Virus record (IMG/VR): IMGVR_UViG_2850756110_000009 | Direction: 5' to 3' (one strand) | Length of the DNA: 29,734 nt | From: a virus | Taxonomy: Duplodnaviria > Heunggongvirae > Uroviricota > Caudoviricetes | Part shown: positions 526 through 28,688 of the stretch, one piece after another | Position numbering within the stretch: position 1 is the stretch's first letter | How the letters are laid out: each line of letters starts with the position of its first letter | Notes under the pieces: model-generated | What the model saw: only the letters and a program-made list of their open reading frames with translations | The model's database searches: none | What the model was told of the DNA's origin: nothing | Position numbers and translations under genes: made by a program

Positions 526-629
526 GACGAGTCATCCCTTAATTATTCTCACTTAACTGTAAGCGTACAGCCTGAACCGTCTGGTCAGAATCTGACGAAT
601 TAGACAAAGTGGTGTCCACCAAATAAGTA

Positions 630-1031
630 GTGGGAACCAAAGTGTCAGATATGCAGAAAAATGTGAATCCCGGCAGGCGAAAAGGCTGCCCTAATTATCC
701 TCCCGAATTTAAACAGCAGCTCGTTGCTGCCTCCTGTGAACCCGGGATATCCATCTCAAAACTTGCTCTTGAAAATGGCATTAACGCCAATCTGTTGTTC
801 AAATGGCGACAACAATGGCGCGAGGGAAAGCTGCTATTACCTTCTTCAGAGAGCCCCCAGCTACTTCCTGTGACTCTCGATGCAGCTGCCGAACAGCCAG
901 AATCGCTCGCAGAGGATCCGGAAACCCTCAGTATCAGCTGTGAGGTAACGTTCCGGCACGGGACGCTCCGCTTCAATGGCAATGTCAGCGAAAAGCTCCT
1001 GACTCTGCTGATACAGGAACTGAAGCGATGA
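630..1031 (+). CDS. IS66-family accessory protein TnpA (orfA)
   Basis: 133-aa ORF in first position of the three-gene IS66 arrangement; identical protein in all three copies. Confidence 0.8.
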   Translation: MGTKVSDMQKNVNPGRRKGCPNYPPEFKQQLVAASCEPGISISKLALENGINANLLFKWRQQWREGKLLLPSSESPQLLPVTLDAAAEQPESLAEDPETLSISCEVTFRHGTLRFNGNVSEKLLTLLIQELKR

Positions 1032-1375
1032 TCCCGTTACCTTCCGGGACCAAAATTTGGCTGGTTGCCGGTATCACCGATATGAGAAATGGCTTCAACG
1101 GCCTGGCGGCAAAGGTGCAGACGACGCTGAAAGACGATCCGATGTCAGGTCACGTTTTTATCTTCCGTGGGCGTAATGGCAGTCAGGTAAAGCTCCTCTG
1201 GTCTACCGGCGATGGACTGTGTCTGCTGACCAAACGGCTGGAGCGCGGCCGCTTCGCCTGGCCGTCAGCCCGGGATGGCAAAGTGTTCCTCACACCGGCA
1301 CAGCTGGCGATGCTCCTTGAAGGTATCGACTGGCGGCAGCCTAAAAGACTGCTTACGTCCCTGACTATGTTGTAA
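1028..1375 (+). CDS. IS66-family TnpB (orfB)
   Basis: 115-aa ORF MIPLPSGTKIWLVAGITDMRNGFNGLAAKVQ; its start overlaps the orfA stop, as expected for IS66 orfB. Confidence 0.85.
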   Translation: MIPLPSGTKIWLVAGITDMRNGFNGLAAKVQTTLKDDPMSGHVFIFRGRNGSQVKLLWSTGDGLCLLTKRLERGRFAWPSARDGKVFLTPAQLAMLLEGIDWRQPKRLLTSLTML

Positions 1376-1423
1376 GCCTCTTTATCCTGGTCGACGCTGA
1401 ATGAGCCTGGTAATATACCCGGT

Positions 1424-2962
1424 ATGAGCAGCTCACTTCCTGACGATATCAATGCACTGAAACGTCTCCTTGCCGAACAGGAGGCGCTGAACCGTGCCCT
1501 GCTGGAAAAGCTGAACGAGCGTGAACGCGAAATAGACCATCTGCAGGCACAGCTGGATAAGCTGCGCCGGATGAACTTCGGCAGCCGCTCCGAAAAAGTC
1601 TCCCGTCGTATCGCACAGATGGAAGCTGACCTGAAGGCACTTCAGAAAGAAAGTGATACCCTTACCGGTCGGGTTGACGACCCGGCCGTGCAGCGCCCGC
1701 TGCGTCAAACCCGCACCCGCAAACCGTTCCCCGAATCACTCCCCCGCGATGAAAAACGGCTGCTGCCGGCAGCGTCATGCTGCCCGGAATGTGGAGGCTC
1801 ACTGAGCTATCCGGGTGAGGATGCCGCCGAACAGCTGGAGTTGATGCGCAGCGTCTTCCGGGTTATCCGGACTGTACGTGAAAAGCATGCCTGTACTCAG
1901 TGCGATGCCATCGTGCAGGCCCCCGCGCCTTCACGGCCCATCGAGCGGGGTATCGCAGGACCGGGGCTGCTGGCCCGCGTGCTGATCTCAAAGTATGCAG
2001 AGCACACCCCGCTGTACCGCCAGTCTGAAATGTACGGCCGCCAGGGCGTGGAGCTGAGTCGTTCACTGCTGTCGGGCTGGGTGGATGCATGCTGCCGGCT
2101 ACTGTCACCGCTGGAAGAAGCGCTTCAGGACTATGTGCTGACTGACGGTAAGCTCCATGCTGATGACACGCCTGTCCCGGTGCTGTTGCCAGGCAATAAG
2201 AAAACGAAGACCGGGCGGTTATGGACCTACGTTCGTGACGACCGTAACGCCGGGTCAACGCTGGCGCCGGCGGTGTGGTTCGCTTACAGCCCGGACAGAA
2301 AAGGCATCCATCCGCAGACCCATCTTGCGGGGTTCAGTGGTGTACTGCAGGCGGATGCATACGCCGGGTTCAACGAGCTGTACCGGGATGGCCGGATAAC
2401 GGAAGCCGCCTGTTGGGCTCACGCCCGCCGTAAAATCCACGATGTGCACGTTCGCACCCCGTCAGCCCTGACGGAGGAAGCGCTGAAACGGATCGGCGAA
2501 CTGTACGCCATCGAGGCAGAGATAAGGGGAATGACGGCGGAGCAGCGCCTTGCCGAACGTCAGTTGAAAACGAAACCGCTGCTGAAATCCCTGGAAAGCT
2601 GGCTGCGTGAAAAGATGAAAACCCTGTCGCGACACTCAGAACTGGCGAAAGCGTTCGCATACGCCCTGAACCAGTGGCCGGCGCTGACGTACTATGCAGA
2701 TGATGGCTGGGCTGAGGCGGACAATAACATCGCTGAAAATGCGTTGCGGATGGTCAGTCTGGGCCGCAAAAACTACCTGTTCTTCGGTTCGGATCATGGA
2801 GGAGAGCGGGGAGCGCTGCTGTACAGCCTGATCGGGACGTGCAAACTGAACGGAGTGGAGCCAGAAAGCTACCTCCGCTATGTACTTGACGTCATAGCCG
2901 ACTGGCCGATAAACCGGGTCGGCGAACTGCTCCCCTGGCGCGTAGCACTGCCGACTGAATAA
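1424..2962 (+). CDS. IS66-family DDE transposase TnpC (orfC)
   Basis: 512-aa ORF with the CWAHARRK region typical of IS66 transposases; intact in all three copies. Confidence 0.9.
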
Positions 2963-2999
2963 CACATCCCCGTCAATACGGTTCTTGCTGCACGCTTAC

Positions 3000-27607: not shown

Positions 27608-27655
27608 ACCGGGTATATTACCAGGCTCATTCAGCGTCGACCAGGATAAAGAGGC

Positions 27656-28003
27656 TTACAACATAGTCAGGGACGTAAGCAGTCTTTTAGGCTGCCGCCA
27701 GTCGATACCTTCAAGGAGCATCGCCAGCTGTGCCGGTGTGAGGAACACTTTGCCATCCCGGGCTGACGGCCAGGCGAAGCGGCCGCGCTCCAGCCGTTTG
27801 GTCAGCAGACACAGTCCATCGCCGGTAGACCAGAGGAGCTTTACCTGACTGCCATTACGCCCACGGAAGATAAAAACGTGACCTGACATCGGATCGTCTT
27901 TCAGCGTCGTCTGCACCTTTGCCGCCAGGCCGTTGAAGCCATTTCTCATATCGGTGATACCGGCAACCAGCCAAATTTTGGTCCCGGAAGGTAACGGGAT
28001 CAT
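27656..28003 (-). CDS. IS66-family TnpB (copy 3)
   Basis: Identical 115-aa product. Confidence 0.85.
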   Translation of the reverse strand: MIPLPSGTKIWLVAGITDMRNGFNGLAAKVQTTLKDDPMSGHVFIFRGRNGSQVKLLWSTGDGLCLLTKRLERGRFAWPSARDGKVFLTPAQLAMLLEGIDWRQPKRLLTSLTML

Positions 28004-28401
28004 CGCTTCAGTTCCTGTATCAGCAGAGTCAGGAGCTTTTCGCTGACATTGCCATTGAAGCGGAGCGTCCCGTGCCGGAACGTTACCTCACAGCTGATAC
28101 TGAGGGTTTCCGGATCCTCTGCGAGCGATTCTGGCTGTTCGGCAGCTGCATCGAGAGTCACAGGAAGTAGCTGGGGGCTCTCTGAAGAAGGTAATAGCAG
28201 CTTTCCCTCGCGCCATTGTTGTCGCCATTTGAACAACAGATTGGCGTTAATGCCATTTTCAAGAGCAAGTTTTGAGATGGATATCCCGGGTTCACAGGAG
28301 GCAGCAACGAGCTGCTGTTTAAATTCGGGAGGATAATTAGGGCAGCCTTTTCGCCTGCCGGGATTCACATTTTTCTGCATATCTGACACTTTGGTTCCCA
28401 C
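28000..28401 (-). CDS. IS66-family TnpA (copy 3)
   Basis: Identical 133-aa product. Confidence 0.8.
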   Translation of the reverse strand: MGTKVSDMQKNVNPGRRKGCPNYPPEFKQQLVAASCEPGISISKLALENGINANLLFKWRQQWREGKLLLPSSESPQLLPVTLDAAAEQPESLAEDPETLSISCEVTFRHGTLRFNGNVSEKLLTLLIQELKR

Positions 28402-28480
28402 TACTTATTTGGTGGACACCACTTTGTCTAATTCGTCAGATTCTGACCAGACGGTTCAGGCTGTACGCTTACGCAAAATC

Positions 28481-28688
28481 TGTCACAGCACAAACACATA
28501 TGGCGTGGAGCGATGCCGATAATCAGCAGGTGAAACTGTCGATGCCGGAACTGGAAGAACTGGCGGCAGCAATGGTGCAGGCGCAGGTCGATCGCAACGA
28601 TGGGATTTATCGCCGTCAGCGTGAAATGAAAGAGGAGCTGAGCGGTCTGGATGATTTGGCTTCAATTCGGGCGTTTGACGTTGAGTAA
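28481..28688 (+). pseudogene. Tail-fibre assembly protein (Tfa-like), C-terminal part, separated from its N-terminal part (3000-3415, minus strand) by inversion
   Basis: Frame from 28481 (VTAQTHMAWSDADNQQVKLSMPELEELAAAMVQAQVDRNDGIYRRQREMKEELSGLDDLASIRAFDVE) continues the ...VVMLAKS frame of the 3000-3415 fragment through the shared 8-bp duplication. Confidence 0.8.

Follow-up and report, generated by a model that had tools for sequence, protein, structure and literature searches.

The window analysed here, a stretch of 29,734 bp from a Caudoviricetes virus record, is 100% identical to a Shigella chromosome (CP026805.1) and consists largely of a decayed prophage lying between zitB and a convergent ipaH gene, together with three near-identical copies of an IS66-family element. 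Its main features are as follows.

1-525, minus strand: 5' part of zitB, a 174-codon open reading frame with a premature stop, left of and outside the inversion
551-558: ACTTAACT, one copy of an 8-bp target duplication in the zitB-ybgS spacer, its partner lying outside the window
559-2999, plus strand: IS66-family (ISEc22-like) copy 1, with tnpA, tnpB and tnpC; left boundary of the inverted segment
3000-26031: inverted segment of 23,032 bp, with decayed prophage tail and neck genes, a lysis remnant, tRNAs and other IS elements
3000-3415, minus strand: 5' part (139 codons) of a split DUF4376/phrog_1141 gene, ending in GATTTTGC (3000-3007) at the IS junction
3366-4778, minus strand: tail fibre gene (phage_tail_N), next to the split gene on its upstream side
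4802-5347, minus strand: intact tail fibre assembly gene, Caudo_TAP (PF02413)/phrog_136, the true Tfa-family gene of the module
17794-20234, minus strand: IS66-family copy 2, a simple insertion inside the tail sheath gene
25905-26031: right-end fragment of IS1, 127 bp, truncated precisely at the right end of copy 3 (TCTGAGAC as flank in IS orientation)
26032-28472, minus strand: IS66-family copy 3, right boundary of the inverted segment, with flanks from two sites (the split gene, or tfa site, and the IS1 fragment)
28473-28688, plus strand: 3' part of the split gene, starting with the other member of the target duplication, GCAAAATC (28473-28480); stop codon at 28686-28688
28804-28835, plus strand: terminator-like GC-rich hairpin with a T-run between the split gene and ipaH, from a consensus scan only
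28868-29734, minus strand: 3' part (NEL domain) of convergent ipaH; in this genome the full gene is frameshifted just past the window end

The assignment of zitB follows the E. coli annotation and a Pfam Cation_efflux match on the gene called in CP026805.1. The three IS66-family copies are each 2,441 bp long and differ pairwise by 1-2 nt, and over this length the element is 99.8% identical to what PGAP annotates as 'IS66-like element ISEc22 family'. Its proteins match NCBIfam transpos_IS66 (465 bits), IS66_TnpB (120 bits) and IS66-like TnpA (97 bits), and Pfam DDE_Tnp_IS66 is matched on the called genes of the element (DDE transposase TnpC). The left end begins with GTAAGCGTACAGCC and the right end closes with GCACGCTTAC, the terminal inverted repeats starting with GTAAGCG, which we take to be a hallmark of IS66-family ends. 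That the element duplicates 8 bp of target is confirmed by copy 2, which is flanked on both sides by GCTGATGC in IS orientation (GCATCAGC on the plus strand, 17786-17793 and 20235-20242) and by matches to the sheath profile E217_gp31_N, and by a copy in the related chromosome CP026842.1 with GATTTTGC on both sides.

Copies 1 and 3, on the plus and minus strands respectively and differing by 1 nt, have flanks of a different kind. Read in IS orientation, copy 1 lies between ACTTAACT and GATTTTGC, and copy 3 between GATTTTGC and TCTGAGAC, so that the 8 bp at 3000-3007 are the exact reverse complement of those at 28473-28480, as had been claimed when the sequence was originally read. One target duplication has thus been exchanged, its members now standing at the right end of copy 1 and, in IS orientation, at the left end of copy 3; of the second pair only one member lies in the window, copy 3 having the IS1-fragment flank instead. 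GATTTTGC is found at these two junctions and nowhere else in the window; the bare count is insignificant, since at least two matches are found in 41 of 100 shuffles of the window, and its significance lies in the positions at the IS junctions, the chance of a match for one specified pair of 8-mers being 4^-8, or about 1.5e-5. As for the IS1 fragment, it matches the full IS1 at 15714-16481 at 98%, and relatives without an IS66 copy at this site keep a longer IS1 there. Two candidates from the repeat search were rejected, namely a 2,449-nt match between copies 1 and 2 as shared flanks, which reflects only a chance flank similarity of 5/8, and a 132-nt repeat (16350-16481 and 25905-26036) as a shared junction, which is really the full IS1 matching the IS1 fragment.

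At the copy 1 junction the minus-strand frame reads ...VVMLAKS and then meets a stop within the IS. When 3415 to 3000 is joined to 28481 to 28688, however, the frame reads on as VTAQTHMAWSDADNQQ...DVE to its stop codon, with no gap, overlap or frameshift, and gives a gene of 624 nt and 207 codons in one frame, which bears out the predicted in-frame continuation. The joined protein matches PF14301 DUF4376 (60.6 bits) and phrog_1141, 'tail fiber protein' (290 bits, positions 2-187), both matches spanning the junction, and its closest phage homologues, in phages Rac-SA53 and phiP27, are 75% identical over 100% of its length. The split gene had originally been taken for a Tfa assembly protein. The Caudo_TAP profile (PF02413) gave no match to it, however, and is matched instead by the intact gene at 4802-5347, so that the profile matches identify the split gene as encoding a DUF4376/phrog_1141 tail-fibre-module protein and not a Caudo_TAP assembly protein. 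Annotation of phrog_1141/DUF4376 itself varies between 'tail fiber protein' and 'tail fiber assembly'. In related assemblies the halves are called as separate products, the 5' half with 137 aa and, in 17 contigs, the 3' half with 62 aa (DUF4376). An exact look-up of the 139-aa product read from the first ATG gave no match, as gene callers place the start two codons downstream; the shorter form of 137 aa was matched.

Genomes related to that of the window preserve both the unbroken gene and the un-inverted junctions. The joined DNA (828 nt) is found as one contiguous match at 99.5% identity in enteroinvasive E. coli (EIEC), where the order is tail fibre, DUF4376 gene, terminator-like hairpin, convergent ipaH; this is the ancestral order that had been proposed. 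When the segment 3000-26031 is reversed in silico, CP026842.1 aligns across the right junction in a single alignment of 11.2 kb at 99.8% identity, and carries tail, 5' half, IS, 3' half and ipaH with GATTTTGC on both sides of the IS. Across the left junction, CP026819.1 is colinear over 17 kb at 99.9% and reads zitB-ACTTAACT-IS-TCTGAGAC-IS1 fragment-prophage. For neither of these two chromosomes was the opposite junction (zitB side in CP026842.1, DUF4376 side in CP026819.1) returned by look-ups with the truncated zitB product, Caudo_TAP, a 147-aa open reading frame and the tail terminator. Direct observation thus covers the split gene, its reciprocal flanks and, in relatives, each of the un-inverted junctions, and the idea of one insertion with an 8-bp duplication, followed by recombination with an inverted copy, gains considerably from the comparison.

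These junctions also bear on two other accounts of the split. Several remnants with the same gene family occur per genome, EIEC genomes having up to seven or eight such matches and another IS66-flanked remnant lying near an alpha-2-macroglobulin gene, which might suggest that the halves come from two paralogous ipaH prophages, each with an independent IS66 insertion at the same preferred 8-bp target, and were juxtaposed by unrelated events. This is extremely improbable, in that the halves abut with no base missing or overlapping, the same 8-mer stands at both junctions, the ACTTAACT flank pair is reciprocally exchanged in relatives, and the un-inverted junctions exist there at 99.8-99.9% identity. 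Scarcely more credible is a misjoin by a long-read assembler across identical 2.4-kb repeats, with no inversion in the cell. The IS copies are indeed more than 99.9% identical and related assemblies contain many single-base indels, but the window arrangement recurs in UYIT01000003.1, an assembly from an independent project, and in further similar places, and each alternative arrangement is common to several assemblies.

The zitB side was at first thought to have a more complicated origin, the second parental copy being regarded as something other than a simple insertion as the outer flanks of copies 1 and 3 do not match. Within the window they indeed differ (ACTTAACT against TCTGAGAC), but the missing partner of ACTTAACT exists in relatives: at least six assemblies read GATTTTGC-IS-ACTTAACT-ybgS and on to modF, so that ACTTAACT abuts the IS right end beside ybgS and has been exchanged reciprocally. 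Three of these (CP026832.1, PSSQ01000001.1 and PSST01000003.1) also carry zitB-ACTTAACT-IS-GATTTTGC-5' half. In E. coli the zitB-ybgS site is empty, carries ACTTAACT once and is contiguous at 100%; the empty-site query was covered to at least 80% in 5,337 of 5,426 genomes. From this partner and the intact empty site it follows that the zitB-side copy arose by simple insertion between zitB and ybgS, duplicating ACTTAACT, contrary to the original prediction.

A single inversion, which had been thought sufficient, would not account for the window. The inversion is larger in most relatives, covering about 47 kb with ybgS-gal-modF included. Because the zitB-side copy was simple and the IS1-fragment flank derives from a further copy, the window state requires at least two events, an inversion and the loss from this place of a segment of about 20.6 kb. 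If the ybgS-modF segment lay elsewhere in CP026805.1, with ACTTAACT-IS at one end and IS-...ATAAAAAC at the other, this would mean translocation, whereas its absence would mean deletion between direct copies. If truly lost in the strain, the ybgS-aroG-gpmA-gal-mod segment would have metabolic and LPS consequences.

The window is best explained, with a probability that we put at roughly 0.85, by IS66 insertion in the DUF4376 gene and recombination between inverted copies, followed by a loss involving a further copy. An ISEc22-like element would have inserted, duplicating GATTTTGC, in the DUF4376 gene, which came last in the tail module of a phiP27-like ipaH prophage adjoining pgl, and another copy would have inserted in the zitB-ybgS spacer in the opposite orientation, duplicating ACTTAACT. 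Homologous recombination between these inverted copies would then have turned the intervening DNA, placing the 5' half on the minus strand, reading away from zitB, and leaving the 3' half beside ipaH on the plus strand. In the window lineage yet another copy, adjoining the IS1 fragment on the head-proximal side of the prophage remnant, would also have recombined, and this second exchange would have taken about 20.6 kb (ybgS-aroG-gpmA-galMKTE-modF to the prophage early region) from this place and left the 23-kb prophage remnant alone between copies 1 and 3.

The exchange was probably of the RecA type rather than transposase-driven, and the inversion presumably preceded the loss. An attempt at mapping crossovers gave 14 variable columns in 14 IS copies, mostly private, and crossover points are not mappable because the copies differ at too few positions. 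The structural markers disagree and so do not fix how many events there were or in what order: the ipaH frameshift places the window genome with genomes retaining the ybgS-modF segment, and the deletions next to IS1 farther downstream suggest another grouping.

Taken alone, the junction sequences would fit both insertion with recombination and a one-step intramolecular replicative transposition, in which the zitB-ybgS copy attacks the DUF4376 gene on the same chromosome and so, in one event, adds the second, inverted copy, inverts the intervening DNA and leaves inverted 8-bp repeats of the target, without a simple-insertion intermediate. Its product would be identical to the ybgS-retaining relatives (zitB-ACTTAACT-IS-GATTTTGC-5' half and ybgS-ACTTAACT-IS-GATTTTGC-3' half), and none of the relatives examined shows one copy flanked by ACTTAACT on each side. 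However, CP026842.1 has the two-step intermediate with direct GATTTTGC repeats, a simple-insertion state that could itself be a re-inversion, and CP026840.1 (sheath-IS-tfa), CP026828.1 (tfa-IS-sheath) and CP026819.1 (zitB-IS-IS1 fragment) show exchange of flanks between pre-existing copies, as homologous recombination does. To our knowledge, replicative cointegrate-type transposition is not established for the IS66 family, and a literature search on the IS66 mechanism returned nothing useful. We regard the one-step route as unlikely; if true, it would be rare direct evidence on IS66-family movement. Insertion followed by recombination remains the preferred reading. At least six flank combinations are found at the locus among about 20 genomes, and one might go further and view the four copies of ISEc22, which lie within some 50 kb, as a reversible recombination hub, with the tail segment flipping and ybgS-gal-mod lost repeatedly in parallel sub-lineages, possibly even within single cultures; that either this or the one-step origin of the first inversion holds is doubtful, if marginally less so than the one-step route by itself.

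The prophage is dead. Its sheath gene is interrupted by IS66 and a baseplate wedge gene by an IS3-family element, IS1 lies next to the tube gene, the head genes are missing and the last tail-module gene is split. The tail module belongs to the contractile, phiP27/E217-like type, so that the term 'lambdoid', used in the original reading, fits the lysis and early regions only. The ipaH gene is also frameshifted in this genome. No new mechanism or function is implied, and the value of the locus is that of a clean worked example, in which every junction of the textbook IS-inversion model is present in sequenced relatives. In practice, automated annotation will report the halves as two small genes of 137 aa and 62 aa or as pseudogenes, assemblies from short reads are interrupted at the IS junctions, and synteny comparisons of the zitB-gal-pgl region in the Shigella cluster must allow several alternative orders. 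The literature search found no description of this locus, from zitB/ybgS to the pgl-adjacent ipaH prophage, with its flank combinations, and an accession search gave only an unrelated mention.

Finally, the locus may be compared with known systems. The window copies are ordinary members of ISEc22, sharing the tnpA-tnpB-tnpC order, the 8-bp duplications and the GTAAGCG ends. As in Mu Gin/G, P1 Cin/C and e14 Pin, an inversion endpoint in the tail-fibre module changes what follows the fibre genes, but here the endpoints are whole 2.4-kb IS elements and a gene is destroyed rather than alternative ends being swapped; among the called genes covering the window region there is no serine invertase (Resolvase-family product), and there are no short crossover sites. 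The ipaH phiP27-like remnants of EIEC strain VL40 and others have the same order of tail fibre, Caudo_TAP, second tail fibre, DUF4376 and convergent ipaH, and in comparison with such remnants of Shigella and EIEC the window prophage is heavily decayed. IS-mediated chromosomal inversions, parallel inversions and rearrangement hotspots have been described in Shigella, with IS66 expanded in particular lineages (Seferbekova et al., 2021; PMC8072062). The present case is real, well documented and ordinary in kind, and resembles those inversions in that inverted copies of a multicopy IS bound the segment, target duplications are exchanged and orientation varies among close strains, while differing from them in its small scale of 23-47 kb.

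The window is contained at 100% identity in the Shigella chromosome CP026805.1, and the locus is shared by a near relative, CP026832 (S. dysenteriae 14 ATCC 49346; PMC10132075). Its features are as follows.

1-525, minus: 5' part of zitB
559-2999, plus: IS66-family element (IS) copy 1
right of IS copy 1, minus: decayed prophage tail module
15714-16481: full IS1
17794-20234, minus: IS copy 2, interrupting the sheath gene
right of IS copy 2 and the sheath gene, left of the partial IS911: neck genes
about 22830-23357, plus: partial IS911
23367-23582, minus: phage holin gene, between the two IS911 elements
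23875-24185, minus: four tRNA genes (Gly-TCC, Thr-TGT, Arg-TCT, Met-CAT), between the two IS911 elements
24319-25566, minus: full IS911
25905-26031: IS1 fragment, 127 bp
26032-28472, minus: IS copy 3
right of IS copy 3, plus: short ORF
right end of the window, minus: 3' part of ipaH

The two IS911 elements (22830-25566) are inverted relative to each other. The AT-rich 338 bp that separate the IS911 end from the IS1 fragment (25567-25904) are kept in all related assemblies and form part of a 147-aa ORF with no match in a Pfam search. The zitB gene is broken into 174-aa and 139-aa products (excerpt L031, 10001-10941); the exact 174-aa product occurs in CP026805.1 only, and relatives carry a 313-aa gene.

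The 2,441-bp IS66 element carries tnpA, tnpB and tnpC, shares 99.8% identity with annotated members of the ISEc22 family of IS66, and differs by 1-2 nt among its three copies. Read in IS orientation, the 8-bp flanks are ACTTAACT-IS-GATTTTGC for copy 1, GCTGATGC-IS-GCTGATGC for copy 2 and GATTTTGC-IS-TCTGAGAC for copy 3. Copy 2 is a simple insertion with an 8-bp duplication and thus shows the insertion behaviour of the element. The reciprocal flanks proposed for copies 1 and 3 are indeed exact reverse complements (3000-3007 and 28473-28480); this 8-mer occurs nowhere else in the window, and the chance of an 8/8 match for one specified flank pair is about 1.5e-5.

The minus-strand ORF from 3415 to 3000 finishes with VVMLAKS and meets a stop within the IS. 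Joined to 28481-28688, with the duplicated 8-mer counted once, it gives a 624-nt ORF with no gap, overlap or frame change. All details of the noted split thus hold. The joined protein also behaves as a single homologue across the junction: it matches Pfam DUF4376 with 60.6 bits in one stretch (residues 70-175) spanning the junction at residue 119/120, versus only 23.5 and 33.4 bits for the separate halves; it matches phrog_1141 ('tail fiber protein') with 290 bits over residues 2-187 of 187; and it aligns in one piece, at 74-75% identity and 100% length, with proteins of phages Rac-SA53 and phiP27. The gene had been called a tail-fibre assembly gene. However, the joined protein has no match to the Caudo_TAP family (phrog_136, PF02413), whose member here is the neighbour at 4802-5347, so that name was guessed from position; the safe choice is to call it a DUF4376 protein of the tail-fibre module.

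The joined 828 nt (gene, spacer and ipaH end) find a one-piece match in ten enteroinvasive E. coli chromosomes (nine at 98.6-99.5% identity, the tenth at 94.9%). It is unlikely that the two halves stem from separate insertions into paralogous prophages. The annotation of strain VL40 runs from tail fibre through tail fibre assembly protein and second tail fibre to the DUF4376 protein, followed by convergent ipaH and then chromosomal genes. Together with a terminator-like hairpin between the split gene and ipaH, this bears out the ancestral order of the original prediction. The tail genes, with sheath and baseplate and with Pfam families that take their name from Pseudomonas phage E217, belong to the contractile type, and the prediction's term 'lambdoid' therefore fits at most the lysis and early regions.

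The same locus was retrieved from about 20 Shigella assemblies by exact-product look-ups, and the 8-bp flanks were read for every IS copy. In CP026842.1, GATTTTGC flanks one IS at either side; this IS separates the tail genes and 5' half from the 3' half and ipaH, and is a simple insertion in the split gene. In CP026819.1, zitB-ACTTAACT-IS-TCTGAGAC and the IS1 fragment precede the prophage, which runs in the forward direction. When window 3000-26031 was reversed in silico, the CP026842.1 excerpt (L024) gave a single 11.2-kb match at 99.8% spanning the right junction, and the CP026819.1 excerpt (L037) was colinear through the left junction for 17 kb (99.9%). The relatives thus show both predicted un-inverted junctions, each in a different genome. 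The window's own arrangement recurs in the independent assembly UYIT01000003.1, which makes misassembly unlikely.

Further recombinants occur. CP026828.1 (tfa-site-IS-sheath-site, the insertion sites in the split gene and of copy 2, respectively) is a deletion between copies 2 and 3, and CP026840.1 (sheath-site-IS-tfa-site) is an inversion between copies 1 and 2; flank exchange is therefore possible between any pair of these copies. One-step intramolecular replicative transposition of the zitB-ybgS copy into the DUF4376 gene would predict the same junctions as insertion followed by recombination, and sequence alone does not separate the two. The one-step event is nevertheless improbable: CP026842.1 carries the simple insertion, and flanks have been exchanged between pre-existing copies in many cases, both of which favour the proposed insertion in the gene followed by recombination with an inverted copy.

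Recombination between inverted copies also has an identifiable second parent. At least six assemblies (CP026807.1, CP026823.1, CP026840.1, CP026832.1, PSSQ01000001.1 and PSST01000003.1) carry GATTTTGC-IS-ACTTAACT followed by ybgS, aroG, gpmA, galM, galK, galT, galE and modF, and the last three also show zitB-ACTTAACT-IS-GATTTTGC-5' half. The window's zitB flank and the ybgS flank, joined with a single ACTTAACT (600 nt), are contiguous and 100% identical in E. coli, with at least 80% of the join matched in 5,337 of 5,426 genomes; one parent thus arose by simple insertion into the zitB-ybgS spacer. In the ybgS-carrying assemblies the inversion is a clean reciprocal exchange between this insertion and that in the DUF4376 gene. 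The inverted segment of CP026832.1 (47,085 bp) comprises a 24,010-bp prophage remnant, IS copy b and 20,634 bp from the prophage early region to ybgS. Copy b (ATAAAAAC-IS-TCTGAGAC) has a truncated, different IS66-family element on one side and the IS1 fragment on the other; genomes without it retain a longer IS1 there. The flanks of copies 1 and 3 derive from three separate IS66 copies, two of them simple insertions (sites ACTTAACT and GATTTTGC). The third is copy b, which adjoins the IS1 fragment (TCTGAGAC) and whose flanks do not match each other. The claim that the second parental copy was itself no simple insertion is true of the immediate parent; its origin, however, was the simple ACTTAACT insertion, whose empty site is seen in E. 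coli.

The ancestral order would have been zitB-a(+)-Y-b(+)-P-c(-)-3' half-ipaH-pgl, where a, b and c are IS copies, Y extends from ybgS through the prophage early region, and P stands for the remnant of the prophage up to and including the 5' half. The window state, zitB-IS-P(reversed)-IS-3' half, could arise by inversion between a and c followed by loss of Y from here between the now-direct copies b and c, or Y could be lost from here first, between the direct copies a and b, and P inverted afterwards. Intermediates of both routes are present in relatives, so either order may apply; Y-retaining genomes occur with and without copy b. Just past the window end, ipaH of CP026805.1 lacks 1 nt at position 927 of 1,827, a deletion that leaves a 288-aa NEL-only ORF (excerpt L023, 10369-12194). 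The same deletion is found in CP026823.1, CP026832.1 and CP026842.1, and is absent from the ipaH of UYIT01, CP026807.1 and CP026828.1. By this frameshift the window genome falls together with CP026842.1 and two Y-retaining genomes, which slightly favours inversion before Y loss and suggests that some orientations at the locus are re-inversions.

Other IS-associated variants were seen. PSSQ01000001.1 and PSST01000003.1 (L048, 12349-15226; L051) carry, where zitB-IS meets the 5' half, an additional 437-bp fragment of the IS right end, placed in tandem after the full IS copy and before GATTTTGC. In the draft AKNG01000065.1 (L039/L061/L071), the IS beside the IS1 fragment adjoins kdsA and an ldr toxin gene opposite, a further flank combination. 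Close to an alpha-2-macroglobulin (yfhM-like) gene (L043-L050, e.g., CP049281.1, CP026866.1, CP026762.1), a paralogous remnant of an ipaH prophage holds a piece of about 1.3 kb (a 173-aa ORF and the identical Caudo_TAP gene) between two inverted IS66 copies; the side of this piece on which ipaH lies varies among assemblies, apparently through a further IS66-bounded flip.

The prophage is heavily damaged. Besides the sheath gene hit by IS66 and the frameshifted ipaH, the full IS1 adjoins a truncated tail-tube-like gene (E217_Gp32), and an IS3-family element (7138-8366; 409-aa fused transposase in relatives) interrupts a baseplate wedge gene (Phage_Wedge1). The tape-measure/SLT gene is broken into pieces of 84, 99 and 506 aa, versus 673 aa in other genomes, and head genes are missing. 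Absent at the partial IS911 are lysozyme, terminase, portal and capsid genes, which would be expected to separate the holin gene from the neck genes.

The split-gene inversion indicates no new mechanism. IS expansion and IS-bounded inversions, including parallel inversions and rearrangement hot spots, are established in Shigella genomes, and IS66 is enriched in particular lineages (PMC8072062). Overall, the window locus resembles these known inversions and is a well-resolved further instance, inside a dead prophage.
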